A DNA stretch of 64,000 nt from Promethearchaeota archaeon Loki_b32 (GTDB taxonomy: Archaea; Asgardarchaeota; Lokiarchaeia; Sigyniarchaeales; SOKP01): contig NJBH01000006.1 of assembly GCA_005223125.1 (NCBI GenBank), positions 97,507 to 161,506 of the forward strand. The letters run 5' to 3'. The notes below the pieces were generated by a model, which ran no database searches, was not told the origin of the DNA, and saw only the letters and a list, made by a program, of their open reading frames with translations. A program made the translations under genes and the position numbers. This document shows, in pieces, positions 1 to 15,742 of this stretch (positions are counted from its first letter, which is position 1; each line of letters opens with the position of its first letter).

Positions 1-282
1 ATTAATATTAGAAGGATTCTTTTTTATATAGTTATAAATCTCATTTCGTTTTGGATGTTCAATAATATTATTTTTCATTAATCTTGTTCCTGGGATAATA
101 ACACGTTTTTTTATTAAATCTTTTAAAATTAATTCAATTCTATTCTCATTTATATTTGGATTATATCTAACTCTATTATTTATATACGATATGATTTCTT
201 TGATTGAAAAGAACGTTTTTTTTGTTAAATACTCTTTTACTAATTCAAGAACGACAGATTTTGCATTATCCAGAGAACTCAT
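1..282 (-). CDS. Winged helix-turn-helix protein, 3' end runs off the window
   Basis: Not in the ORF track. ATG at 282-280 opens an uninterrupted frame MSSLDNAKSVVLELVKEYLTKKTFFSIKEII...IIPGTRLMKNNIIEHPKRNEIYNYIKKNP. The R-x-x-I-Y-x-Y-I-x-x-N-P segment is typical of the start of an archaeal wHTH domain. Confidence 0.65.
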   Translation of the reverse strand, partial: MSSLDNAKSVVLELVKEYLTKKTFFSIKEIISYINNRVRYNPNINENRIELILKDLIKKRVIIPGTRLMKNNIIEHPKRNEIYNYIKKNPSNIN

Positions 283-549: not shown

Positions 550-885
550 ATGAGTTTTGAAAATGAATTTGATGAGGATTTAGTTGGGAAGGAGCCTGTA
601 AAATCTAAAACTCCCGCATCTAAAACCCCTTCAACAGGAAAGAAATTGACTTTGTATTTCATGTCTACTATTGGACCCGGTGAAAAGAAGGAAAAATTAA
701 CAGTAAATAACAATAATCGTGTGAGTGATATTAAACAAACACTTGGAAATTTATTTGGACTTAATCCAAACGATTTTCATTTATCATCTGGAGGTATTAC
801 AATGGATGAAAATAGCTACTTAAACGATTATAGTGTAAGTGATGGCGATGATATTCTTTTGATCCCTGCGAGTACTGCGGGGTAA
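550..885 (+). CDS. Ubiquitin-like (beta-grasp) modifier with N-terminal extension and C-terminal -STAG
   Basis: Residues ~32-111 align by eye with ubiquitin (RVSDIKQTL ~ TIENVKAKI; LSSGGITMDENSYLNDYSV ~ LIFAGKQLEDGRTLSDYNI). Ends in Gly. First gene of an E1-E2-JAMM cluster. Confidence 0.85.
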   Translation: MSFENEFDEDLVGKEPVKSKTPASKTPSTGKKLTLYFMSTIGPGEKKEKLTVNNNNRVSDIKQTLGNLFGLNPNDFHLSSGGITMDENSYLNDYSVSDGDDILLIPASTAG

Positions 886-917: not shown

Positions 918-952
918 AAGGGCGCTAAGCCCTTTAATTTTTTTTATTTTTT
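918..952 (+). terminator. Stem-loop plus T-tract between the Ubl and E1 genes
   Basis: AAGGGC(918-923)-GCTAA-GCCCTT(929-934), followed by TAATTTTTTTTATTTTTT. Confidence 0.55.
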
Positions 953-976: not shown

Positions 977-2200
977 TTGGGAAAGAGTTCAGATTTTTTT
1001 AGTAGAGGCCTGACATCGGAAGAGAGAAATTTATACGACCGCCAATTTAGGCTTGAGGGATGGTCTCAGAAACTAGTAAAAAACACTCGAGTTTTGATAG
1101 TTGGAGTTGGGGGATTAGGTTGCGAAATCGCAAAAAATCTGGCAATGTTAGGAATAGGACATTTAGATTTAGTAGATTTAGATATTATTGAACATTCAAA
1201 CTTAAATCGCCAAATTTTATTTACGGGTGCTAAATTGGGGGAACCTAAAGCAATCGTGGCGGCAAAAAAATTAACTGAAATAAATCCAAATATTAATGTA
1301 AATGGTTATCATACTTCCTTAGAGCGCCTAGATCCTGCAATATATAGAGCTGCTGACGTTATTATTGGAGGTCTTGACTCCATGAACGCTCGATTGAATT
1401 TAAACGCTCAATGTGTAAGATTTAGGAAACCACTAGTAGATGGAGGTGTGTCAGGTTATCATGGTCATGTCTACACGATTTTTCCATTCAAAAATGCATG
1501 TTATGAATGTAACCCGCTCCCTATAGCTGAAAGTGATGAGATGGCTGCATGTACTGTAGTAGGAATACCAAGAAAGAGGATTCACTGCATTTTTAAAGGA
1601 GATATGGCCTTTAAAGAAAAATTCGATAGGGATCCTAATCCAAAAAGTGTTGTTGATATTAAATTCATTCAAAAAGTTGCTAATGAATTAGTAAATAAAC
1701 ATAATTTTCTCCCGGAATATACTCAAGATGATATTGTAAAGATTATCGATAGACATGATCCAGGAATAATTACCATAAATGCTGTCATTTCAGCATTACA
1801 ATCTCATGAAGCTATAAAAATCCTTCATTGGAAAAAAGGACATATAGGTTTAGGTGAACCAATAAAAACCTATGTTATTTTCAATGCAATGACAATGATG
1901 TTTTATCATATTGAAAAAAAAAGAAATCCAGAATGTTCCCAATGTGGAAAAAAAGTTCGAAGATTTGTCGTGAAATTAAGAGCACGTTCTCCATGTATTA
2001 ATATAATCAAAGTATTAGAAAAACATGGTTTTAAGTTAGATCCTGATCTCGAACCCGTAATAACATTATTGGATTTTAATGATATTAAGATGATTGATCT
2101 AGAACAGAATCCAATTGAAAATGGTTTAAGAAATTACGAATTTATGACTGCTGCAGGGTTTAAAGATGGAGAAATTTTTGTAACCTTAAAATTAAAATAA
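977..2200 (+). CDS. Ubiquitin-like activating enzyme E1 (ThiF family, UBA3/SAE2-like)
   Basis: YDRQ, GVGGLGCE, SNLNRQ, GLDSMNAR, CYEC and CSQC zinc pairs, catalytic-Cys segment AACTVVGIPRKRIHCI. TTG at 977 follows a GGTGA SD (track start 965). Confidence 0.93.
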   Translation: MGKSSDFFSRGLTSEERNLYDRQFRLEGWSQKLVKNTRVLIVGVGGLGCEIAKNLAMLGIGHLDLVDLDIIEHSNLNRQILFTGAKLGEPKAIVAAKKLTEINPNINVNGYHTSLERLDPAIYRAADVIIGGLDSMNARLNLNAQCVRFRKPLVDGGVSGYHGHVYTIFPFKNACYECNPLPIAESDEMAACTVVGIPRKRIHCIFKGDMAFKEKFDRDPNPKSVVDIKFIQKVANELVNKHNFLPEYTQDDIVKIIDRHDPGIITINAVISALQSHEAIKILHWKKGHIGLGEPIKTYVIFNAMTMMFYHIEKKRNPECSQCGKKVRRFVVKLRARSPCINIIKVLEKHGFKLDPDLEPVITLLDFNDIKMIDLEQNPIENGLRNYEFMTAAGFKDGEIFVTLKLK

Positions 2201-2282: not shown

Positions 2283-2810
2283 ATGAGTATAAGAAGTAGT
2301 AGAATCTCGCAAGATTTTGCGGGATTAAAAAAATTGTATAAACAAGGAACTATTATTCAGTTAAAACCATTTAATCCAAAAAGAAAGAGTATTGATCATT
2401 TAGCAATTACTATTAAAGGACCTAAAGGTACTGTTTATGCAGGTGGTCTTTTTAAATTAGAAATGAAATTCCCTGCTCAGTATCCTAGACAACCACCTTT
2501 TGTAAGACTGCATACTCCAATCTGGCATCCAAATTTTTGGGCAAAACCAAGTGAATATAAAGGACAAAGAAATATTTGTTTAGCATTAGTAGATCCCTCC
2601 CTAACTGGTAAAAGAGGAGGGTGGAGTCCATCAAAAACAGCGGTTACCGTTGTTCAAGCAATAATTGCTATGTTAAACACACGAGGTAAATATGTAAATC
2701 CTACCGATGTTTTTAATAAAAAAGCTGCGATAGAGATGATGAAAAATCAGAAGTTTTTTGAGAAAAAAGTGAAGAATCTCGTGAAAAAGTATGCAAATAA
2801 AAAATGGTGA
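2283..2810 (+). CDS. Ubiquitin-conjugating enzyme E2 (UBC fold)
   Basis: GPKGTVYAGGLFKL, FPAQYPRQPP, HPN motif, catalytic Cys in NICL, WSP motif. Confidence 0.95.
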   Translation: MSIRSSRISQDFAGLKKLYKQGTIIQLKPFNPKRKSIDHLAITIKGPKGTVYAGGLFKLEMKFPAQYPRQPPFVRLHTPIWHPNFWAKPSEYKGQRNICLALVDPSLTGKRGGWSPSKTAVTVVQAIIAMLNTRGKYVNPTDVFNKKAAIEMMKNQKFFEKKVKNLVKKYANKKW

Positions 2811-2818
2811 TTACTTTA

Positions 2819-3631
2819 ATGGAGAATAAAGAATTAGCCAATAGTTCAATCAAAGACGTAATTAAAAAGAAGATAAAAGAAAAAATAAAACAAGAATTAC
2901 TAGATGAAATATGTGAAGAACTTAAATTAGAGGAAGAAGAATTAACAGAAGAGATTTGTTCAATGCTTACTAAAAAAACCTCTGCCAAACCAATAATAAA
3001 ACTTTCTAAGATACCTACCGTCAAAATAGAAGAGAAAAAGCATGTTGAAATACAAATAGAAGAGGAAATACAAAAAGAAGTTTATATTTCAGTAAAAAGT
3101 ATACTTAAAATAGCAAGTCATGCGCTTAAATATGCAAATTCTAAGATTCGAAGAGAGAATTGGGTGGAAGTTATTGGGCTTCTAGCAGGAAAATTAGATA
3201 AAAACGAAATACTCCATATTGAAGATGCTTACCCAATGGGGCATGGAACGGCTGTATATGCCGAAATTAAAGATTATAAGAATTATGTGAGGGCATTTAA
3301 AGATATTAAAAAACAGAGATTATTTATATGTGGATGGTATCATAGTCATCCTTCATATGGTCTTTTTATGAGTAATGAAGATATGGGCACTCAAGCAAGA
3401 TATCAAACACTTTGGGATAAAGCAGTTGCTCTTGTTGTTGATCCATACCTAATTGACGGTACTTCACCAGGCTTTGAGATTTATAGCGCTAATTTGAAAT
3501 CAAAAACATGGTATCCATTATTATACGGGATTAAAGGGTCATTAGATGTAAGAATGTTACCTGAAATATTGAAATTTATGCATCCCCTCATTGAAGGAAA
3601 GCCAGTATATCTTGAATATGATGAAGATTAA
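2819..3631 (+). CDS. JAMM/MPN+ metallo-isopeptidase (Rpn11/CSN5-like) with charged N-terminal extension
   Basis: EVIGLLAG, GWYHSHPSYGLFMSNED (H-x-H-x7-S-x2-D), AVALVVDP. ATG at 2819 follows GGTGA (track start 2804). Confidence 0.92.
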   Translation: MENKELANSSIKDVIKKKIKEKIKQELLDEICEELKLEEEELTEEICSMLTKKTSAKPIIKLSKIPTVKIEEKKHVEIQIEEEIQKEVYISVKSILKIASHALKYANSKIRRENWVEVIGLLAGKLDKNEILHIEDAYPMGHGTAVYAEIKDYKNYVRAFKDIKKQRLFICGWYHSHPSYGLFMSNEDMGTQARYQTLWDKAVALVVDPYLIDGTSPGFEIYSANLKSKTWYPLLYGIKGSLDVRMLPEILKFMHPLIEGKPVYLEYDED

Positions 3632-3659: not shown

Positions 3660-4850
3660 ATGGCAAAATTTAAATCGGTAGTAATTTTTCTAGCGATATT
3701 TTGCTTAATTGGTATAATCCATGGTGCTCTTCTAAATTCAATTAATGTTTTTGTAACTTGGTTGTTAATTGGAATTTGGTTAATTTATTCTTTCAAAGTT
3801 CTAAAAAATATCAAACAATATCGTGAATTTAATTCTCCTCATAATACTGCTTTTTTTACCATTGGTCCTGTTTTAATGGGAATTTTTTATTCAGTGTGGA
3901 GTAATTTCACAGGTTTATTAGGAGAAAATCTTTTAGAAAGTACAGATTTATATTTAAGTTGGTGGAGTATACTATTTGGATTTCCCTATATATTATATGG
4001 TTCGATTTCTTTATACCGTTGTTTTAAAAAGTATAATGTAATACATTTTAGAAGGAAATCAATAAAAGCACGCACATTTGGTTTTATTTTAGGAATCTCC
4101 ATTCTCCTGTTTATAATTATATACTGGATAAGTTTTTATTCAATTATAGACTTTTATGAATCTTTAATAACACCTCTCCATTTTTTAATAGATCTCAATC
4201 TATTAATATTACTTATCAGTACTATACTACTATTAATAGTCCCTGGCTTGTTTGGTGCTCAAACTCCATTACCTCAACTAACTAGAGATTACATAGCAAG
4301 ACGTACAAGCAGATTAAACAATTTAACATCACCCACCCCTAATCGACAAAGACAAACTGTTCGTACTACAACTAGATCATCTCCAACACCTTCAACAAGA
4401 ACAGTTGCTCGCACAACAAGATCAGTTTCTCGTTCTGCAAGATCAACGCCTACAACAAATAGATATTCTACAAGCTCTAGAGAAAAAAAAACTACTCAAA
4501 CTGTAGGCAGAAGAGCAACAGGACCAGTGCGAAGAAAAAAAACTGTTACAAAAATAAGCAATTTCAATTTATATAAACCAAAAGCAGCACGTCTTTCAAC
4601 AGAGGATTTTAAATGTATTTTTTGTTTTAAGTTACCAGAATATCCTAAAGATAATGGTAGAGGAATAATATTGTGTCCAAAATGTAAATACCCCGCTCAT
4701 GCTGACGAATTTAAAGATTGGCTTCAAAGTTCTAACCTATGTTCTCGGTGTAATACACCAATTCCCTCAAGCTTTAGAAGAAATCCTAAAACCATAAGTG
4801 TAAAAAATTATATAATCGTCATTAAGCATTTTGTAAGTAATAGGAGATGA
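3660..4850 (+). CDS. Polytopic membrane protein with C-terminal RING-variant zinc finger, candidate E3 ligase
   Basis: About 6 hydrophobic segments in residues 1-200, an R/T/S-rich linker, then CIFC-x16-CPKC-x4-H-x2-E-x3-W-x6-CSRC. GGTGA SD. Last gene of the Ubl operon. Confidence 0.7.
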   Translation: MAKFKSVVIFLAIFCLIGIIHGALLNSINVFVTWLLIGIWLIYSFKVLKNIKQYREFNSPHNTAFFTIGPVLMGIFYSVWSNFTGLLGENLLESTDLYLSWWSILFGFPYILYGSISLYRCFKKYNVIHFRRKSIKARTFGFILGISILLFIIIYWISFYSIIDFYESLITPLHFLIDLNLLILLISTILLLIVPGLFGAQTPLPQLTRDYIARRTSRLNNLTSPTPNRQRQTVRTTTRSSPTPSTRTVARTTRSVSRSARSTPTTNRYSTSSREKKTTQTVGRRATGPVRRKKTVTKISNFNLYKPKAARLSTEDFKCIFCFKLPEYPKDNGRGIILCPKCKYPAHADEFKDWLQSSNLCSRCNTPIPSSFRRNPKTISVKNYIIVIKHFVSNRR

Positions 4851-4883: not shown

Positions 4884-5819
4884 TTATTTTAACTTTTGTT
4901 TTAACGCCCCAATAGTAGTTTTTAATTCAGCATAAACATTAAAAATATGAATTGATTCAAAACTTTCAATTTTAAATTTGATTTCGAAATTATCTTCAAT
5001 GTTAGGAAAATCTCTTAACATGAAGTTTTTTGCCATTTCTCTAATCACATCTTCTGAAAATAACGGTTTTAGATGAGCGCTTCTTACTAATTCAGCTTCT
5101 TCAGGTCTTTTTAACACAGATTGTATTTTCCCACTCATTGAGTCTTCTATTACTTCAATAATATCTAAAACATCAATTTTATGGCCTGTTAAATCCTTTA
5201 TTTGGACAATTATTGATCCAATAGATCTTTGATTATGTGAGGAAAAAGGAAGTATATTTATTAATTTCTTAAGATCTTCTTCGCTAACATTTATATCTTT
5301 TCTTGTTTTAATTATTTCTTCGGCATATTCTTGAGACATTTCTTTAGCACAGGGACATACAGTTATCCCGACTGCGCTCGCACCCACAAAATAGTTAAAA
5401 TCAATCTTTCCAGCTTCATCTCTTTTAGCTCTTACAAAAGAACTAATATTATAAGATTTTTGGATATTTCTGGAATTATTTTCTCTTACCTGAACAATTA
5501 TTTTTCCTTCTAATTTAACTTCCGCTTTTGATGAATATGGATGTCTTTCTAAGAGTTTTTTAACGATTCTATCACCTACTAATTCAATTGTAGGCGTTGG
5601 TTTGTAAATTACTTCATTTATAACTTCCTCTATTGTTTCAGAAGTACGCGACATATGTATTCCACGCTGTTTTGCGGGAAGATTAATCAGTGCTGAGATC
5701 GTGGGGTAAAATGAGTATTTTTTATTTTCTTGTACGATTTCAACTTTTTTCTCTAGTTCTACTATTCCAACTTTATCAATTGCAATGTCAATTGCTGAAC
5801 CGGAATCCTGTAAATCCAT
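4884..5819 (-). CDS. mptA: GTP cyclohydrolase IV (FolE2/MptA family)
   Basis: RGIHMSR, TVCPC, SHNQR, LKRPEE, ESIH motifs. Confidence 0.9.
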   Translation of the reverse strand: MDLQDSGSAIDIAIDKVGIVELEKKVEIVQENKKYSFYPTISALINLPAKQRGIHMSRTSETIEEVINEVIYKPTPTIELVGDRIVKKLLERHPYSSKAEVKLEGKIIVQVRENNSRNIQKSYNISSFVRAKRDEAGKIDFNYFVGASAVGITVCPCAKEMSQEYAEEIIKTRKDINVSEEDLKKLINILPFSSHNQRSIGSIIVQIKDLTGHKIDVLDIIEVIEDSMSGKIQSVLKRPEEAELVRSAHLKPLFSEDVIREMAKNFMLRDFPNIEDNFEIKFKIESFESIHIFNVYAELKTTIGALKQKLK

Positions 5820-5929
5820 TTTAAACTCGTGAATTTTAAATCACCAGAATTAAAAAATAATTTTATTTTGTTCTATTCATAAAGAAGATTAGATAAAATA
5901 TAAAATAATTTGAATTTTTCAAGAACTAA

Positions 5930-7099
5930 ATGCCTAATAAAAGTATTTTCAGCAAATTTGCATTAATAGGAGAAGATTTAGAACTTAAGCAAGATGTTTT
6001 ATTAGAAATCGATGAAGAAGGAAAGATAATTAACATCACAGATAATAATCCAGATATACACATCGAAATTTTTAAAAACGGTCAAAATTATTTGCTAATA
6101 CCAGGCTTTATTAATTCTCATACACATATAGGTGATAATTTTGCGAAAGAAGTTGGTTTTAATAAAGATTTGGTGGAGGTAGTTGCCCCACCATTTGGTC
6201 TTAAACATAAATTATTAAGACAAATCCCTGAACACATTAAAATTAAAGGAATTCAAAACGCAGTTTTAGAAATGCTTTCAAATGGTATTATATTTTTCAT
6301 TGATTTTAGAGAGGGAGGTATTGAAGGTGTAAATCTTCTAAAAAAAGCACTTATTAAGAGTCCAATTAACTATATAATCTTAGGGCGATTTATGGATGAA
6401 AGTGAAATAGATTCTTATTTTGATTTAGCAGATGGAGTTGGATTATCTAGTTATAAACAAATTACTTCATCAAATGAAAAATATATTATAGCAGCCAAAC
6501 AGAAATATAAAAAAATCATTGCTTGTCATTGTGCTGAAAAAACTCGCATTGATCTTTTAATAAATAAAATGTTTAATGAGAATCTTGTTGATGTCATCGT
6601 TCATGGTACTAAATTTATCAAAAAAGATTTAGAAAAATTGATAGAAAATAAAAAATCTCTTGTTTTATGTCCTCGTTGTAATGGATATTTTGGAACTGGA
6701 TTTCCACCCATTAATGAAATTATAAAATTAGGAATTCCCTTATCATTAGGAACAGATAATTTAATGGTAAATAATCCCGATTTATTTGAAGAAATACGAT
6801 ATTTTTATCGGATTTCGAGAGTATTATGTAGTTATGATAAAGAACTTCAGTTTACTTCTAAAGATTTATTGAAAATGGTAACAATAAACGCCGCAAAAAA
6901 TTTTAATCTTGAAAATGAGTTTGGTTCAATTTCAAAAGGAAAATTTGCTGATCTTTTTATAGTCGATCTCAATTGTCCAAATCTTTTTTCTTCTATATTA
7001 GATTCTAATAATATATATAATTTAATTACTCAAAGAGTAAAATCAGAAAATATAATTAAGACCTATATTAAAGGAGAATTAGTGTTTGAAAGAAAGTAA
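5930..7099 (+). CDS. Metal-dependent amidohydrolase (deaminase-like)
   Basis: PGFINSHTHIGD, HCAE, VHG, LGTD, TINAA, GKFADL. Confidence 0.85.
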   Translation: MPNKSIFSKFALIGEDLELKQDVLLEIDEEGKIINITDNNPDIHIEIFKNGQNYLLIPGFINSHTHIGDNFAKEVGFNKDLVEVVAPPFGLKHKLLRQIPEHIKIKGIQNAVLEMLSNGIIFFIDFREGGIEGVNLLKKALIKSPINYIILGRFMDESEIDSYFDLADGVGLSSYKQITSSNEKYIIAAKQKYKKIIACHCAEKTRIDLLINKMFNENLVDVIVHGTKFIKKDLEKLIENKKSLVLCPRCNGYFGTGFPPINEIIKLGIPLSLGTDNLMVNNPDLFEEIRYFYRISRVLCSYDKELQFTSKDLLKMVTINAAKNFNLENEFGSISKGKFADLFIVDLNCPNLFSSILDSNNIYNLITQRVKSENIIKTYIKGELVFERK

Positions 7100-7751
7100 C
7101 AAGCCCTATGTCATTTTAAGCGCTGCAATGACTATTGATGGTAAAATCGCCACTAAGAAGGGCGATTCAGAATTATCCGATAAAGCGGATTGGAAAGAAG
7201 TACATAAACTCCGAACTCAAGTTGATGCTATAATGGTAGGTAAGGGGACTATTTTAAAAGACAATCCAAAATTGCATATTAAATATTATAATCATCGAGG
7301 ATATTATAGACTTGTTCTAGACAGTAATTTAACGATTCCATTAGATTCCAATGTCATATCTTTTCAACAAGAAATTTATCCTACAATTATTTGTACCACT
7401 GAAAATGTACCATTGGATAAAATAAAAAAGTATGAAGATAAAGGTGTTAAAATTATAAATGTTGGAGATGACAAACGCGTGAGTCTAATAAAACTTTTAC
7501 CTATCCTAAAAAATTTAGGAATAAATACCATATTACTGGAAGGTGGTGGCAATTTGAATTGGAGTTTTATAGAAAATAATTTAATTAATGAAATACGGTT
7601 AACTATAGCTCCCTGGATTGTTGGTGGAAAGGAAGCAACAAGCCTAGTAGAAGGAATAGGATTTGAAAAGATAGTAAGTGCACCTAGATTTGAGCTTTTT
7701 GATGTTAAAGTTAGAACTTATTACATTACTCTAAGATATAAAAGGAAGTAG
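7086..7751 (+). CDS. arfC: 2,5-diamino-6-ribosylamino-4(3H)-pyrimidinone 5'-phosphate reductase
   Basis: AAMTIDGKIAT, DAIMVGKGT..DNP, LLEGGG (RibD C-terminal domain). Context next to cofGH. Confidence 0.88.
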   Translation: MKESNKPYVILSAAMTIDGKIATKKGDSELSDKADWKEVHKLRTQVDAIMVGKGTILKDNPKLHIKYYNHRGYYRLVLDSNLTIPLDSNVISFQQEIYPTIICTTENVPLDKIKKYEDKGVKIINVGDDKRVSLIKLLPILKNLGINTILLEGGGNLNWSFIENNLINEIRLTIAPWIVGGKEATSLVEGIGFEKIVSAPRFELFDVKVRTYYITLRYKRK

Positions 7752-8860
7752 TGATGAGGGAAAATAAAATCACACAGTTAAAAAACCTGAAATTTAATAA
7801 AATAAGAGAAAAGGTTAAAGAAATAAAAACTGAATTATCTGAACAAGAACGTAGTGTGATTACTTACTCGAGAAATTTCACACTTTCTCTTTCAAACTAT
7901 TGTGTTAATCAGTGTGGATATTGTTATTATAATTATAAAATTCCTAAGCTAAATAGTGAAGATAATGTAATATTGCTTAGGAATGAGCAAATTGTGTCAT
8001 ATATTCAAGAAGCTCTTCAATATAATTGTAAAGAAGCCCTGATTATGTCTGGAGAACGCCCTGGAAGTTTTCAAGAAGTTAAAGAAGAATTGAAAAAAAG
8101 AAATTGTTCAGATTTTATAGAGTATGTAAAAAACGTTTGTACATATTTACTTGATTCTAAAATTCTACCTCATTCAAATTTAGGATTTTTAACTTATGAT
8201 GAATTAATGGATTTAAAAAAATACAATGCTAGTATGGGGTTGATGCTTGAGGGTACTAGCATGAAACTTTTTAAAAAAGGGGAAGTTCATGAACATTCTC
8301 CTGGAAAATTACCAAAAAAGAGAATAAAGCACATTACTGATGCCGGAAAATTAAAAATTCCGCTTACTACGGGATTATTGGTCGGTATTGGAGAGGTAAT
8401 TGCAGATATCATAGAAGATTTACATTTAATAAAAAATATCCATAAAAAATATGGACATATTCAAGAAGTTATTATTCAGAATTTTGTAAGGAAAGATAAG
8501 ATTCCATATCAACCTAAAAAGCCAATTGCCATCGAAGAGGTGCTAAGAATAACTGGAATAGCTCGAATTATTTTAGAAAATGAAATTGCGATTCAAGTTC
8601 CGCCTAACCTCATAGCTGGTTTTGAAAAGCATTTTCTCGATATGGGAGTTGATGATTTTGGAGGTATTTCTCCGTTTACATTAGATTATATAAATCCTAA
8701 AAAAATTTGGCCTCAAATTGATAATTTGAATAAAATTTGTAACGATAAAGGTTTTACACTCAAAGAGAGACTCCCTATATATGATAAGTTTGTAAATAAA
8801 GAAGGATTTTGCTCAGAAAATATTAAAAAAATAATTGATAATATAAATCTAGATGACTAA
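7751..8860 (+). CDS. cofG: Fo synthase subunit CofG
   Basis: TYSRN, CVNQCGYC, SMGLMLE, TTGLLVGIGE, HIQEVIIQNF, IQVPPNL, DFGGISP. Confidence 0.93.
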   Translation: MMRENKITQLKNLKFNKIREKVKEIKTELSEQERSVITYSRNFTLSLSNYCVNQCGYCYYNYKIPKLNSEDNVILLRNEQIVSYIQEALQYNCKEALIMSGERPGSFQEVKEELKKRNCSDFIEYVKNVCTYLLDSKILPHSNLGFLTYDELMDLKKYNASMGLMLEGTSMKLFKKGEVHEHSPGKLPKKRIKHITDAGKLKIPLTTGLLVGIGEVIADIIEDLHLIKNIHKKYGHIQEVIIQNFVRKDKIPYQPKKPIAIEEVLRITGIARIILENEIAIQVPPNLIAGFEKHFLDMGVDDFGGISPFTLDYINPKKIWPQIDNLNKICNDKGFTLKERLPIYDKFVNKEGFCSENIKKIIDNINLDD

Positions 8861-9983
8861 TTCGCAATTTTTTGAACATATTAAATCAAATATAAAAGCG
8901 ATTTTACAGAAGGCTTTAAATTCAGAGGAATTAAGCTCAGATGAAGCGCTAGAGTTATTAAAAGTAAAGGGAAAAGAATTCTTTGCCCTTCAGTATGTAG
9001 CTGATCAGATCTGCTTTGAAAAAATGCAAAATATTGTAACCTTCGTAATAAATAGAAATATTAACTTTACAAATATTTGCTATCAGCATTGTAAATTCTG
9101 TTCTTTCAGTTTGCCAGCAACCCACACTAACGCATTCTTACTCACTATTGAACAAATTAGTGAAAAAGTAATTGAGGCAAAAAAAATTGGATGTACTGAA
9201 GTTTGTATTCAAGGAGGTATAAATCCAGATTTAAAGTTTGAATTTTATTTAGATATACTTAAAATTGTTAAGAAAATAGATCCAAATATTCATATTCATG
9301 CTTTTTCTCCACAAGAATTATTTTACATGTCAAAATTGTATGAGAACTCAATAGAAGATACTTTAAAGGAATTAAAAAAAGCGGGATTAGATTCAATTCC
9401 AGGAACAGCAGCAGAGATTTTAGTAGATGATATTCGGAAAATTATATGTCCTAATAAAGTTTCTACTCTACAATGGATTAACATCATTACTACTGCCCAT
9501 AATTTGGGAATCCCAACGACATCGACAATAATGTACGGGCATATAGAATCATTAAATGATCGAGTTACACATTTAGATGTTTTAAGAGAAATTCAAAAAG
9601 AAACTAAAGGCTTTACTGAACTTGTACCTTTACCTTTTGTAAAAGAAAACCCTATGTTATCTAAACTTGAAGATTTTCCGTTAAATCCAACCTATGGAAT
9701 GGATGATTTAAAATTATTTTGTGTATCTCGGATATTTTTAAATGATTATATTGATAATATACAATGCAGTTGGGTAAAATTAGGTCCAAAATTTGCTCAG
9801 GTGTCTTTAAATTTTGGAGTAAACGATTTCTCAGGAACATTAATGGAAGAAAATATATCAAGAAGCGCTGGAGCAGAATTTGGTCAATATTTACCACCCG
9901 AAGAAATAATTAATATAGTTAAAGCTGCTGGAAAGAAACCTACACAAAGGGATACTCTATATAATATATTGAAATATTATTAA
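8853..9983 (+). CDS. cofH: Fo synthase subunit CofH
   Basis: NRNINFTNICYQHCKFC, PGTAAEIL, TIMYGH, NIQCSWVKLG, GTLMEENISRSAG. Confidence 0.93.
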   Translation: MTNSQFFEHIKSNIKAILQKALNSEELSSDEALELLKVKGKEFFALQYVADQICFEKMQNIVTFVINRNINFTNICYQHCKFCSFSLPATHTNAFLLTIEQISEKVIEAKKIGCTEVCIQGGINPDLKFEFYLDILKIVKKIDPNIHIHAFSPQELFYMSKLYENSIEDTLKELKKAGLDSIPGTAAEILVDDIRKIICPNKVSTLQWINIITTAHNLGIPTTSTIMYGHIESLNDRVTHLDVLREIQKETKGFTELVPLPFVKENPMLSKLEDFPLNPTYGMDDLKLFCVSRIFLNDYIDNIQCSWVKLGPKFAQVSLNFGVNDFSGTLMEENISRSAGAEFGQYLPPEEIINIVKAAGKKPTQRDTLYNILKYY

Positions 9984-9985
9984 AA

Positions 9986-11842
9986 TTAATGACTTTGTAG
10001 ATATTCTAGAATATAGCGTTGTGCTATTAGATCCGAATTAACCATACCCAAAACTTTTCCCTGTTCTACTACTGGCATTGCAGAAATTTGGTATTGCTCT
10101 AATTCACGAACTATGTCTATAATGGAAAAATCTGGAGATGCTATAACAACATCCTTAGTTATTACTTTATCAAGAATGACATCACAACTATTAGAGGCGA
10201 CCGCGGCAGTTATATCCCAATCTGTTACAACTCCTACAAGTTTGTTCTCAGAAAGTACTGCAATTATTCCACTTTTATTTTGTATCATTAATGCAGCAGC
10301 CTCCTGTATTTTACTTTTTACATCAATTGTTGGTATTGGAATCATTATGTCTTTTGCTGTACGTTCCCTTTCCTTAACAGTTAAACGTTGAAGACTGATA
10401 CGTTCAGCTGCCGTGCATGGAAGCATATCAGGGTGTGCTGCTAATAAATCAACTAATTCACTCATATTACGATGAATTACATCTTCCCTATATTCCTCAC
10501 CTGCTTTTAAACGTTGTTTTGAAAGCTCAATAAACTCTTTTGAATAACCTTTTAACCATTTTTCTACTGCTTTACGATCTCCTAATATTTCTTCCGGTAT
10601 TTGTAATTGATCCGGAGATTTAATGATATGTTCTTGAGCAGCAAAAATTACACCTCCAGAATTTACAAGGTAATCGTTAGCAATCATTACTCCTTTTTCT
10701 CCGTATACAATTTGCTCCATTCGAGTTCGTGCCGCCTTTCGATTAGGATCTGGAGAATAGGTATTTGCTCCTTCTATAATCACAACCCATTTTCCCATAC
10801 GATCCACGGTTATCGATGGATTTTCAGAAGCTCTTACACCTAGATAGTTGAATATTGGAGCTGCAGGAACTAAGCAAAAAGCATTTTCGAGAAGTAAATT
10901 ATTTCTATTAGTAGAAAATTTTGTAGGGTGTTTATATCCCTCTGAAAAAATCTTTTCTTTAAAAAAAATATTAGTAACTAAACGTTTTTCTTCCCATATT
11001 TTAAAAAGTTCCCTAATCGGTAACCCTGACTCATTATACAAATAGCCTTCCAAATCACTTACACCTATTACTTTAGCATCAGGAATTCTTTCATATAATA
11101 TACGTGCTGCATGAGCCCCAACAGCTCCGAAACCTTGAATCAAAATTTTAAGATCTTTGGTTTCTGGAATTTCTAAGTTAACAAATTGGGGAAGAACTCT
11201 TAATCTCGGCATTATCTCTAATAACGTTTGCAAAGCAATTACAACACCTCCTGCTGCTGCGCCGAGTTCATCAATCCGATTTCCTCCCATATCTGCAGGT
11301 TTAGAAAGAACACTATCTATACCATTCTCAATTGCAATGGTCTTCATATCAGCATCATTAGTACCAACATCTGGCCCTGGAAGATAAATATTACTATATC
11401 GCTTAATTAAGCGCGCAAAGCCACCAATTACTTTATCATGTTCCTCTAGCGAGAGATCTCTTTCAGCAACAATCCCAGATTTTCCACCACCATATGGAAG
11501 ATTAGCTGCTGCGTTTTTTAGCGTCATACCTCTAGCTAAATTATGAATATCTGAAGGTACTATATCTGGGAGCATTCTTATCCCTCCCATTGATGGAGAA
11601 CCCATAGACAGGTTGTCAACTACTAAATATCCCCCAATTTCTAACTCTGATGTTTCATCCCATAAGCAAGCAACAAGATGAGGCCCTAATTTATCAACAA
11701 CAATCCCGATTCGAGATAAAAGGTGCTCATCTATATTACTAAACTCTAAATAACATTTACCATTATCTTTTTTAAGTCGGGTTTTGAGCGTTGCTTCTGG
11801 GAGACGCTCATGAAGAAATGATTTCATTTTTTTTGGTATCAT
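9986..11842 (-). CDS. Glu/Leu/Phe/Val dehydrogenase fused to a C-terminal CBS pair
   Basis: GGIR, MTLK, GGGKSG, PGPDVGT, QGFGAVG, EGAN, NSGGV. C-terminal GVVTDWDI and MPVV CBS signatures. Confidence 0.88.
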   Translation of the reverse strand: MIPKKMKSFLHERLPEATLKTRLKKDNGKCYLEFSNIDEHLLSRIGIVVDKLGPHLVACLWDETSELEIGGYLVVDNLSMGSPSMGGIRMLPDIVPSDIHNLARGMTLKNAAANLPYGGGKSGIVAERDLSLEEHDKVIGGFARLIKRYSNIYLPGPDVGTNDADMKTIAIENGIDSVLSKPADMGGNRIDELGAAAGGVVIALQTLLEIMPRLRVLPQFVNLEIPETKDLKILIQGFGAVGAHAARILYERIPDAKVIGVSDLEGYLYNESGLPIRELFKIWEEKRLVTNIFFKEKIFSEGYKHPTKFSTNRNNLLLENAFCLVPAAPIFNYLGVRASENPSITVDRMGKWVVIIEGANTYSPDPNRKAARTRMEQIVYGEKGVMIANDYLVNSGGVIFAAQEHIIKSPDQLQIPEEILGDRKAVEKWLKGYSKEFIELSKQRLKAGEEYREDVIHRNMSELVDLLAAHPDMLPCTAAERISLQRLTVKERERTAKDIMIPIPTIDVKSKIQEAAALMIQNKSGIIAVLSENKLVGVVTDWDITAAVASNSCDVILDKVITKDVVIASPDFSIIDIVRELEQYQISAMPVVEQGKVLGMVNSDLIAQRYILEYLQSH

Positions 11843-12340: not shown

Positions 12341-13912
12341 TTATTCATCTTGGATATAAGGTTTTCCAAAAAATATGCAAATTTCTGCTTTTTTCAATTC
12401 TCTACCTAAATAATTTAAATGATATACATCTTGCGTCAATTTAGATTGAATTATCTTTTTACTTAGTGCTTCAGAATTATCTCCAATAAAAGTCTGGAGT
12501 AAAATATCATCATTTGTATAGAAGAGAACATAAATTTTTCTTAAATAATGATTTACATAAATCCTAAAATAACCGTTTTCATCAGGAGTATATTCAGGAA
12601 TTAATTCATTTACTAATATTGCTCTTTTGTCATTAAATTTTGGTGTTTTTTCATTTATTTTTCCCTTGGCTCTGAAAACTGAAATGCCTTGATTTATAGG
12701 AGGTGTTTTTTTGTGTTTAGCTACAAAATTTAACTTTACACTTTCTTTTAGTTCTCTTACTCCTCCCATCAATTTTGTACTATGTTCAACAGTAAAAAGA
12801 ACGCCCATATCCTGCTCAATTGCAATACTTGCTAATAAGCCGTTAATTCCAACGGAATCTATATCCATTAGTTCAACTACGTTTGAGATTCCAAAAAATA
12901 AAGGGAGTTCAAAATTTTGATACTTATCTTCTGAAATTTTTTTTTTATATAAGAAATAAGTTTCTAATGAATTACAAATACCAGGAGTTATAGGAGTTTC
13001 TAATAAAGGATCAGCTATTAATTTTTTAAAGCCATTATTTTGCAATTCATTCGTCAGTTTAAATAAATTTTTAATACGTATTTCAGGATCTTTAGGAAAA
13101 TATGCTTCCTTAACATTAGTAGGAAGTATAACAATAGGAATGTTTTTGGGAAGATTTAAGAATTCCTTATAATTACCTAAATCCAAACTTAGAATTAGAT
13201 CAATATCTTCATCAACAGCGGCATTAATCTCATCGGAATCCATTGAATCAACACTAATTAAAATATTAAAATTAGACCTTACTAATTTAATAATCTCCTT
13301 TACTCTATCTGAATTTGGTTTATTAGAAACACAACCAATATCAATTATGTCTGCTCCAGAGCCTATATAGTGTTTAACTTTTTTGAGAATATTATAATCG
13401 CTTTTTTCTGTACAGTTCACAATTTCTGCTATAATTGGGGGTGGTAAATTTCTACCAATTATTATTTTAGACTTTTCTTCATTCAAGTAATATGTGTGAA
13501 AGCTTAATTGATCTTTTGCTAATTCTAACTGTTTCTTTACTATTTCAGAAAACTCACTTTCTCCTGAAATCTCCATTAATCTATTTGCTGGTATGGTATT
13601 AGATAATTCTAAATTCTCTAAATTTTTTAATATAGTTGGTATTTCAGATGCAAACTCGGGTCCTTTCCTAATTTTTATTGAATATTTATCTTCTAAATTC
13701 TTAGAATCCCACTGTACAAATCCAGGTATTAATACAATATCATAGTGAGAAATTTCTATTTGTTCTATTATCTTAGATGTTATAGATTCAGTAAGAAAAG
13801 CAGAAATTGTAATTGGTGCTTTTATAATATTTATATTATGCTCTTTAGAAGTTTTTGTTATCTTTTCTATTATATTATAGCTCTGTTGACCAGTAATTAT
13901 TAGAATTTTAAT
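12341..13912 (-). CDS. Dihydropteroate-synthase-like protein (methanopterin-associated, DUF4346-type C-terminus); true start probably ATT at 13912
   Basis: GADIIDIG, SVDS, ADP, NVVELMDIDSVG, HLNYLGREL. The frame stays open 112 codons upstream of the track ATG (13576) and encodes the family N-terminus KILIITG...LIPG...KGP...PA. Confidence 0.85.
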   Translation of the reverse strand: MKILIITGQQSYNIIEKITKTSKEHNINIIKAPITISAFLTESITSKIIEQIEISHYDIVLIPGFVQWDSKNLEDKYSIKIRKGPEFASEIPTILKNLENLELSNTIPANRLMEISGESEFSEIVKKQLELAKDQLSFHTYYLNEEKSKIIIGRNLPPPIIAEIVNCTEKSDYNILKKVKHYIGSGADIIDIGCVSNKPNSDRVKEIIKLVRSNFNILISVDSMDSDEINAAVDEDIDLILSLDLGNYKEFLNLPKNIPIVILPTNVKEAYFPKDPEIRIKNLFKLTNELQNNGFKKLIADPLLETPITPGICNSLETYFLYKKKISEDKYQNFELPLFFGISNVVELMDIDSVGINGLLASIAIEQDMGVLFTVEHSTKLMGGVRELKESVKLNFVAKHKKTPPINQGISVFRAKGKINEKTPKFNDKRAILVNELIPEYTPDENGYFRIYVNHYLRKIYVLFYTNDDILLQTFIGDNSEALSKKIIQSKLTQDVYHLNYLGRELKKAEICIFFGKPYIQDE

Positions 13913-14999
13913 CTAAATCACTCATCAGCTTTTCTTTTTCAAATGGTATAAAAATATCATCCAAGATTGAACCTGTAGCTTCTTTTATTTTTAAATTATC
14001 TATAATTGGTTCGAATCTTCCCCCTATGAGTCCATTGGCAATAAATGCCGCCCCTTGTGCAGCACGTTTAGAAATTTGACTAAAAGATTTCATTGTTCTG
14101 ACAGGAGCAATATCTTTTAATCCACGAATCATTTTTTCTCGAAAATATACTAAATCTGATCCTCTCCCTGCCAATAAAACTTCTTTTATTTTATCTTTAG
14201 AAGTAAAGGATGAAGATAGTCCAAATACTGCTTTTTTCACACTAGATAGGTAAGCTTTTAGAGCTAATTTTGTTTGATTGTCCTTCTTTGCGAGAAGGGT
14301 GATCTCTTTTAAACTCAAATTGGAATATCCAGAAATATATGCTACACCACCTTTATATATATTCTTTTTATGAATTGTTTTAATAAGATATGCTAGTTCT
14401 CCATCAAGAGATCCACATGCTCTAAATCCCATGATATTTGATCCTCCTATTCCATCAACAATTTGACCGTTTTCAATTGCCAAGACTGCTGTGAAACCAT
14501 ACCCTATCTCAACCATTATAAAATTTGTATCTTCTGGAGAGATTTTGAATCTTTCAATTTGATCTCTAATTCCAGTAACAGCTGTACAAATTTTATCTGC
14601 AGTACCCATATCAATTTTATTAATTTTTTGATGTCTAGGAACAGTAGTTAAATGCTTAACTCCAGGGACAATAATGCCAGCAATTTTTTGAGCTTTAATT
14701 AATCTTAGAACTTCTCCAAGACCAACCAACTTATTTTTTTCTTTCTGGTCAAATTTTAGTAATGTAAAAAAAATATCTTGTTCTGTTAATTCATGTACAT
14801 CTTTTAAAGGAAGCCCAAACCCACTTGGAGCGACCATTAAATCAATATCTTTTACAGAATTTATTATAGTTAAAGCTTTTTGAGGATCAGAAATTAATTC
14901 TGTAGTGGGTAATGAGGTATCTAAAATTATTTTGTCATCTTCTAGCCCGAAGAAATCCCAGCTCTTCGATCCGGGGTCTATACCGAGAACTCTATACAT
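13908..14999 (-). CDS. DUF1464 family ASKHA-superfamily kinase-like protein
   Basis: GIDPGSKS, APSGFG, DMGTADK, GQIVDGIGG, AAQGAA. Confidence 0.8.
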   Translation of the reverse strand: MYRVLGIDPGSKSWDFFGLEDDKIILDTSLPTTELISDPQKALTIINSVKDIDLMVAPSGFGLPLKDVHELTEQDIFFTLLKFDQKEKNKLVGLGEVLRLIKAQKIAGIIVPGVKHLTTVPRHQKINKIDMGTADKICTAVTGIRDQIERFKISPEDTNFIMVEIGYGFTAVLAIENGQIVDGIGGSNIMGFRACGSLDGELAYLIKTIHKKNIYKGGVAYISGYSNLSLKEITLLAKKDNQTKLALKAYLSSVKKAVFGLSSSFTSKDKIKEVLLAGRGSDLVYFREKMIRGLKDIAPVRTMKSFSQISKRAAQGAAFIANGLIGGRFEPIIDNLKIKEATGSILDDIFIPFEKEKLMSDLD

Positions 15000-15211
15000 C
15001 GATAATCAGACTTAATATATTAATACATTTTAAAAGATTCTATAATTCTTTTTATATTCTATTTTTTTTTAATAATTGCTTTTAACTGAATCTTTTTTTA
15101 GAATTAAAGTTAAAACTATAAAAATTGTGGAAATTTTTACTAATTTAATCTATACATGAAATCTTATACTAAGTTGTAAGATAAGAATTTAAAAAAAAGT
15201 GGTGAAAAAAG

Positions 15212-15742
15212 ATTATTGTTAAAGTTTTTGTATGTAAGATCTGTGGAGAAGCGTTTATTGGGGAAGAAGCTCCAAGTCGATGTCCTTTTTGTGGTGCATT
15301 TAAAAAGTATTTTGTAGAATCGACAGAGTATGATGATACTGGCGCGTGGGATGTCGAATTAAATGAAAAAGATAAAGCAAATGCTCAAAAAGCCTTAGAA
15401 GTTGAAGTATCAAATAATATTTTTTATAAATGTGCAAGTAAAAAGACACCAGAATTAGATGGTCAAAAAATATTTAAAATTCTTGCTAAGGTTGAAGCTG
15501 AACATGCATCAGTATGGAAAAAAATACTCAAACTAGACAAGGTTGAATATCCTAAATATGATAAATGTGTTGCAGAATATAAACCAAATTTAGAAGAATC
15601 TCATGCACGAGAAGATAGAGCTATAAAATTCTATGGTCAGGCTGCTGCTGAGGCTGAAAATGCACGAGTAAAGGAAATATTTAAAGCTTTTGTAGAAGTG
15701 GAAACAGATCATCTTCATCTCTCGGAAGCCAGACTTAAGTAA
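15212..15742 (+). CDS. Reverse rubrerythrin (N-terminal rubredoxin plus ferritin-like diiron domain), non-AUG start
   Basis: Not in the ORF track. The frame reads IIVKVFVCKICGEAFIGEEAPSRCPFCGA...ALEVE...KVEAEH...AREDRAIKFY...EVETDH...RLK-stop. GGTGA at 15201-15205 precedes ATT codons at 15212 and 15215. Confidence 0.88.
   Translation: MIVKVFVCKICGEAFIGEEAPSRCPFCGAFKKYFVESTEYDDTGAWDVELNEKDKANAQKALEVEVSNNIFYKCASKKTPELDGQKIFKILAKVEAEHASVWKKILKLDKVEYPKYDKCVAEYKPNLEESHAREDRAIKFYGQAAAEAENARVKEIFKAFVEVETDHLHLSEARLK

Follow-up and report, generated by a model that had tools for sequence, protein, structure and literature searches.

A ubiquitin-like modifier ending in Ala-Gly and its putative conjugation pathway in Asgard archaea

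Many Asgard archaea, the group to which eukaryotes are most closely related, encode a family of ubiquitin-like modifiers (Ubls) that end in Ala-Gly. The member studied here is encoded near the start of a stretch of 64,000 nucleotides (the window) from Promethearchaeota archaeon Loki_b32. Judging from sequence comparisons, this AG tag probably belongs to a second, self-contained Asgard Ubl pathway that exists alongside the pathway of Gly-Gly (GG) ubiquitin. There is good reason to suppose that it works in the style of SUMO or NEDD8, i.e., as a regulatory modifier orthogonal to ubiquitin, while being a member of neither family.

Archaeal operons for E1, E2 and E3 enzymes are already known and have been divided into clusters by E1 and E2 trees (PMC5654768), and the E2 of Lokiarchaeum GC14_75, which is of the AG operon type, appears in a published alignment. 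The Asgard tags that have been tested biochemically so far, as far as the searchable literature goes, end in Gly-Gly. The operon type is hence known, and the Ala-Gly tag is an unreported variant in the literature searched: no paper on it was found among the journals open to searching, and queries with the tail sequence and with Lokiarchaeum locus tags returned nothing relevant.

Results

The tag gene and its product

The tag gene (550..885, plus strand) specifies 111 amino acids, of which the last two, Ala-Gly, are followed directly by a TAA stop codon. Its product matches the Pfam ubiquitin model with 26.4 bits (cut-off 25.4). AlphaFold gave pLDDT values of 45-53 for residues 1-30 and of 82-91 for residues 31-110, and in this model the core (residues 32-106; 643..867) is a ubiquitin-type beta-grasp fold, with Caldiarchaeum ubiquitin as the best Foldseek match (E 4e-8) and VIA Z values of about 14-15 against ISG15 and ubiquitin. 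A preliminary description of this DNA had named structure prediction and Foldseek as a check on the beta-grasp fold, and the fold was borne out. Alignment to eukaryotic ubiquitin placed Arg72, Arg74, Gly75 and Gly76 of ubiquitin at Ala107, Thr109, Ala110 and Gly111 of the tag, Ile44 at Ser79 (codon 784-786) and Lys48 at Ile83 (796-798), thereby reproducing the residue mapping of that description. The C-terminal tail with Ala107, Ala110, the predicted reactive Gly111 and the stop codon lies at 868..885. The N-terminal tail had been described as flexible, acidic and then rich in Lys, Pro, Ser and Thr, with a short duplication, which agrees with the low pLDDT values, with net charges of -5 (the acidic disordered segment, residues 1-16; 550..597) and +5 (residues 17-33), and with the occurrence of SKTP at residues 19-22 and again at 24-27 (604..630). 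The first SKTP contains Lys20, a candidate chain or acceptor lysine. All of these parts are on the plus strand.

Conservation of the Ala-Gly end

At least 833 homologs of the tag were found, and residue counts were drawn from 296 unique free homologs; one family dominates these counts, which therefore do not stand for independent observations. Ala110 is present in 296/296 and Gly111 in 295/296, and a Gly-Gly end occurs in none (0/296). The Ala-Gly end, as read from these sequences, is thus a family trait and not a matter of chance. Conservation of this end was the check set by the preliminary description, which had allowed for orthologs that mostly end in Gly-Gly; a strain-specific Gly-to-Ala change is ruled out by the invariant Ala110. 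Of 301 Asgard genomes, 123 encode a member, and these represent nine GTDB families. Close homologs are labelled Promethearchaeota (Lokiarchaeia), one of the nine is Hodarchaeales, going by the names in its cluster, and in another there is a ubiquitin that hardly differs from the one of Heimdallarchaeota AB_125. An E2 of the operon type is found in 113 genomes of the same nine families.

Pro-forms with extra residues beyond the Gly make up 48 of the 296 homologs (16%), and there are head-to-tail poly-Ubl precursors in which the copies are joined right after the Ala-Gly. Three proteins (P0162, P0163 and P0185) contain two or three AG-Ubl copies in tandem, like polyubiquitin genes. Because pro-forms and tandem precursors break right after Ala-Gly, Gly111 appears to be the processed end. 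The earlier statement that the modifier needs no maturation therefore holds for the Loki_b32 allele only, not for the family.

Position 48 is Val, Arg, Ile or Ala and never Lys in the 296 homologs, which supports the earlier view that K48-type chains would not be formed. Position 44 (Ser79) is Ser in 295/296, as that view of a missing Ile44 patch would have it; however, Leu103, Ile105 and Pro106 vary little or not at all, such that the patch seems to be remodelled rather than lost. Position 72 is Ala in 259 homologs and His, Val or Phe in the other 37. Since position 74 varies between Thr, Ile and Val, the reading of Thr74 as a sign of the SUMO QTGG end was dropped as a weak match that is not diagnostic.

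The operon and its surroundings

The gene order Ubl-E1-E2-JAMM-membrane-RING, with the tag gene first, is conserved across relatives, and so are the catalytic residues across the family (the E1 Cys, the E2 Cys with an invariant HPN, and the JAMM motif). The E1 (977..2200, plus strand, as are all genes of the operon; start at 977 inferred, longest open reading frame from 965) is a single chain with a UBA3-like Cys half-domain, a G-H-V-Y gate motif (1463-1474) and a predicted catalytic Cys codon at 1550-1552. It is followed by an E2 with HPN, a net charge of +26 and family-specific inserts (2283..2810; Cys99 codon 2577-2579), by a JAMM/Rpn11-like protease with an intact HxH...S..D motif (2804..3631) and by a membrane protein with a C-terminal RING-like finger (3660..4850). 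The latter is a candidate E3 by its Cys/His pattern and its conservation in the operon, and gave no Pfam RING match. The spacer between tag and E1 contains a terminator-like hairpin with a T-run (918..944, plus strand); a similar element is present in 57/82 unique spacers, mostly from the own family, and could favour expression of the tag over that of the enzyme. Contigs from one metatranscriptome study match the end of the E1, the E2 and the start of the JAMM gene at ~97% identity and leave the tag uncovered, and transcription is not thereby demonstrated.

On the other side of the tag, the window opens within the gene of a divergent winged-helix regulator (minus strand), of which it covers the 5' part (1..282). 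Further upstream are a gene for a membrane protein whose C-terminal domain is of the same Ubl family and whose terminal Gly is absent (L201:6244-7032, minus), a second AG-Ubl paralog with a longer acidic tail (L201:5771-6193, plus) and, ~1.9 kb before the window, a gene for a coiled-coil protein with a KTP-repeat tail (L201:4428-5582, i.e., G000 C44:94427-95581, minus). A third paralog, 89% identical, stands alone on another contig (L203:2563-2901, minus). Downstream of the operon (4884-11842), unrelated metabolic genes follow, among them a FolE2 GTP cyclohydrolase by Pfam and, by eye, an amidohydrolase, a RibD-like protein, two radical-SAM CofG/CofH-like proteins and a Glu/Leu dehydrogenase-CBS fusion.

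The AG-Ubl domain also ends larger proteins, namely HerA-like ATPase, Cdc48-N/vWA, roadblock and zinc-finger proteins, and the terminal Gly is kept in these fusions. Whole proteins may therefore be conjugated. Fusion loci include L042:8572-10083 (minus) and L044:2264-3718 (plus), and fusion proteins P0166, P0168, P0173, P0177, P0190 and P0195.

Two sets of tags and enzymes

Three kinds of ubiquitin-family tags were found in Asgard genomes: ubiquitin with an R-T-x-G-G end, which usually lies beside an E1 and often also a small RING and an E2; a stand-alone Lokiarchaeial protein ending in TQAGG; and the AG family. Genomes with both GG and AG tags occur in five non-Loki families, and outside Lokiarchaeia the co-occurring GG ubiquitin-like protein has its own E1 and E2. 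No GG-type ubiquitin-family Ubl was found in the Loki_b32 assembly; since the TQAGG protein occurs in 59 of the 68 genomes that represent its family, an assembly gap is likely. At the locus L202 (G000 C30:10800-11449, 13772-15355) of Loki_b32, a second E1 (527 aa, gate H-V-Q, with a Cys half-domain) and a second E2, the reading frame of which is broken by a frameshift in this assembly, lie next to a 2,123-aa MIT/TPR protein; the two enzymes may serve the TQAGG tag.

In an E1 tree, AG and GG enzymes form separate clades (support 98 and 83, respectively), and the E2 tree divides in the same way (support 100). The Ubl tree (81 columns) places eukaryotic ubiquitin with the Asgard GG family and not with the AG family (support 99/97); AG monophyly is beyond what this tree can show, as two very long branches attach inside AG. 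Within the AG clade, a Loki side is set apart from a Heimdall side, a pattern consistent with an old, vertically inherited system that was lost in places. No AG-type E1 was found in the four closed genomes that were examined, and this may be why the AG system was passed over.

The E1 gate and position 75

In eukaryotes, ubiquitin and NEDD8 are kept apart by UBA3 Arg190, which rejects Arg72, Uba1 having Gln at this place (PMC3731359). The gate column was located by means of the PDB chains of wild-type and R190Q UBA3 (motif G-N-x-R). The E1s of the AG system have a G-H-x-Y gate with Tyr in 83/83 cases, and those of the GG system an x-x-Q gate with Gln in 40/41, a split that fits orthogonal pathways. 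By analogy, a bulky Tyr opposite Ala, Val, His or Phe at position 72 fits the NEDD8 logic. The preliminary description had called Ala72 NEDD8-like, and the likeness gains support from the co-varying gate residue (Tyr versus Gln).

A non-Gly residue 75 has been found to allow activation by E1 and to block or impair later transfer (PMC3731359), and Gly77Ala slows cleavage by Rpn11 (PMC6043591). Ala75 thus is unfavourable in characterised systems, so that the enzymes of the AG pathway must have changed along with it. In our judgement the Tyr gate is likely to keep out ubiquitin with its Arg72, much as Arg190 of the NEDD8 E1 does, and Ala75 would further insulate the tag from GG enzymes. A predicted complex of E1 and tag with ATP/Mg scored 0.55, as compared to 0.46 for the control, a result that speaks neither for nor against the pairing and carries no weight here.

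A motif common to the tail and a neighbouring protein

Lys20 is found in 293/296 homologs, as is Pro22 of the same SKTP copy, so that the disordered tail contains a near-invariant lysine, and two copies of the motif are found in 206/294 tails. The Thr is often Ile or Val in the second copy and in the neighbours on the Heimdall side. The coiled-coil neighbour carries one to four copies at the end of 53/57 unique tails, and in Loki_b32 no other of the 3,459 open reading frames has as many K-[TIV]-P copies; the remaining operon proteins yielded a single copy in ~125,000 residues. On the Heimdall side, this neighbour is replaced by two unrelated families, a low-complexity protein with 4-10 repeats and a small protein with one copy in 2/3 cases. 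Lys-rich low-complexity proteins of Heimdall-side AG operons with 8-10 K-[IT]-P repeats are encoded at L031:2785-3573, L034:5195-5854, L037:5345-5992 and L039:6887-7621. Many of the fusion proteins retain the motif ahead of the AG-Ubl domain.

In the case of SUMO2/3, the consensus occurs in substrates as well as in SUMO2/3's own tail. We see about an even chance that hydrophobic-x-[ST]-K-[TIV]-P likewise marks a preferred acceptor lysine, with chains built from Lys20 or Lys25 and with the KTP-bearing neighbours as substrates or scaffolds. Chains on the N-terminal tail and a role outside the proteasome, as envisaged in the preliminary description, appear plausible, though the tag might still act in degradation by way of another receptor.

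Discussion

Proposed mechanism and alternatives

Taking tag and operon together, we regard a complete conjugation cascade as very likely. The adjacent E1 would adenylate Gly111 and form a thioester on its Cys, from which the tag would be handed to Cys99 of the basic E2; the membrane RING would help to join it to lysines, perhaps by preference to those within KTP and including those of the tag's own tail, and the JAMM protease would trim pro-forms and remove the tag from conjugates. Should the AG tag be conjugated, its E1-E2-RING cascade would work with a residue 75 other than Gly, which the cascades characterised so far reject, and the splitting into parallel gated Ubl pathways would predate eukaryotes; a second tag with its own enzyme set suggests that parallel pathways of the ubiquitin versus NEDD8/SUMO-like kind existed before them. 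With a single gate residue, a single candidate acceptor motif and no more than five small genes involved, the question lends itself directly to work in vitro.

The part of this scheme that concerns KTP has a competitor. Thr-Pro is a classic proline-directed kinase site, and the tag might be conjugated while KTP serves as a phosphorylation or docking motif, with tagging being single or chains running via the core lysines Lys49 (conserved in 295/296 homologs) and Lys46 (271/296). We consider this possible but the less probable reading, because Lys and Pro vary the least and a replacement of Thr by Ile or Val would not be tolerated at a phospho-site, which favours an acceptor lysine. It is considerably more doubtful that the tag is a divergent Lokiarchaeial ubiquitin for proteasomal degradation or ESCRT sorting, even though its best profile and fold matches are ubiquitin-family proteins, the membrane RING suggests turnover of membrane proteins, and in one fusion protein the tag is linked to a Cdc48-N domain. 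Against this stand the grouping of eukaryotic ubiquitin with the Asgard GG family, the co-occurrence of GG Ubls with the AG tag, and the Ser at the Ile44 position, where UEV binding requires a hydrophobic residue (PMC9192718).

In favour of a precursor of UFM1, the tag has the same tail spacing (I-P-x4-G) and a single Gly, and its candidate E3 is membrane-linked. Asgard Ufm1 homologs are moreover reported from nine clades in a 2026 paper (PMC12962969), a range that resembles the nine families found here, and the tag could be this "Asgard Ufm1". We hold this to be very unlikely, and the resemblance to UFM1 drawn in the preliminary description was not sustained: the Pfam Ufm1 model at E<=1 was matched by 0/65 members of the AG family and had no match in the genomes of the tag's own family, the single E1 sequence scores 142 bits to UBA2 versus 64 to UBA5, and the E2 is of the HPN type. 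UFM1 is absent among the best 50 matches listed in each fold search, which does not exclude it. Another Asgard family, which is unlike the AG family (hhalign 0.7%), is the more UFM1-like one and among Ubls weakly matches UFM1 only. This family (L212:1390-1698, plus; L224, L225, L227) has an R/K-D-L/V-L-G end with a short extension and is found in 6/301 genomes; its PDB Ubl matches are to UFM1 only, with E 0.18-1.4. That the tag is not conjugated at all and works instead as a sulfur carrier or as an adaptor that binds non-covalently is hardly credible, in spite of the unfavourable Ala75 and of the non-conjugatable membrane paralog in the same cluster, given the conservation of the terminal Gly, the E2 and E1 cysteines and the JAMM motif, and given that the genome encodes MoaD/ThiS-like GG proteins apart from the tag, along with a MoeB-like E1. 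The conjugation cascade thus is the reading that we adopt.

Ancestry of the E1

A C-T-x-x-G-x-P-R-K-x-x-H-C half-domain (UBA2/UBA3-like) is present in 83/83 AG E1s and in no GG E1. A profile of AG E1s scores best against UBA3 (176 bits), followed by UBA1 and UBA2, and the single sequence prefers UBA2; the idea of a specifically SUMO-type E1 was hence dropped. Ubc9 is not the best match of the operon E2. In the E1 tree, the eukaryotic side of which consists of one UBA1-like sequence and includes no UBA2 or UBA3, this sequence joins the AG side (96/96), also when the Cys half-domain is left out. As an AU test does not reject a grouping of the eukaryotic with the GG E1s (p 0.27), the AG-side placement is a lead only. 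A wider scenario, which we put forward as a speculation and think rather improbable as a whole, would have two orthogonal gated cascades in Asgard archaea including Hodarchaeales, a SUMO-like acceptor motif in the AG pathway, an AG-side E1 closer to UBA1/2/3, and a eukaryotic system that is a mosaic of a GG tag and AG-side E1 architecture.

Comparison with known systems

As would be expected of an archaeal Ubl operon, the tag is linked to E1, E2, JAMM and RING-type genes, the RING being assigned by its Cys/His pattern. The operons of Caldiarchaeum subterraneum and Helarchaeia (PMC5654768, PMC6043591, bioRxiv 10.1101/2023.07.25.550441) have the same cluster of a Ubl, an E1 with C-terminal extension, an E2, a Rpn11-like JAMM protease and a RING, and pro-forms occur there, too. 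However, their tags have an R-T-x-G-G end and no N-terminal tail, and their RING is small and soluble, whereas the AG system has Ala-Gly, a 30-aa tail, a Tyr gate, the Cys half-domain, a membrane RING and separate E1 and E2 clades. The Lokiarchaeum "ubiquitin" Lokiarch_37670 (PMC9192718) has the same fold and comes from the same organisms as the AG tag, but is a separate family that is stand-alone, ends in TQAGG and is essentially confined to Lokiarchaeia.

Judged by the traits that define them, the AG tag does not qualify as ubiquitin, NEDD8, SUMO or UFM1. It lacks the marks of ubiquitin proper, i.e., a Gly-Gly end, Arg72 with a Gln gate, a hydrophobic residue at 44 together with Lys48, and the tree grouping; the Asgard GG ubiquitins, too, are mostly without Lys48. 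It also does not behave as a sulfur carrier of the Urm1/SAMP/MoaD kind, as ThiS matched weakly in 4/65 members and a dedicated E2 is present. With UFM1 it has the single terminal Gly and the I-P-x4-G spacing in common, but the enzymes are a canonical E1 and E2, not UBA5 and UFC1, and there is no profile match.

The likeness to NEDD8 and UBA3, which consists in a small or non-Arg residue 72 opposite a bulky gate residue, is analogous only: the gate is Tyr and not Arg190, the end is Ala-Gly, the E1 is a single chain, and identity is ~20%. Compared to SUMO2/3 and Ubc9, the AG motif is [ST]-K-[TIV]-P and not hydrophobic-K-x-E, the end is xAG and not TGG, the E1 is not heterodimeric, a JAMM protease takes the place of a cysteine protease, and the match to the SUMO-like Pfam model (18 bits) is under the cut-off of 23.8. 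Nevertheless, the two systems resemble each other in a disordered N-terminal tail, in a conserved lysine within a motif that the tag has in common with its candidate substrates, and in a very basic E2.
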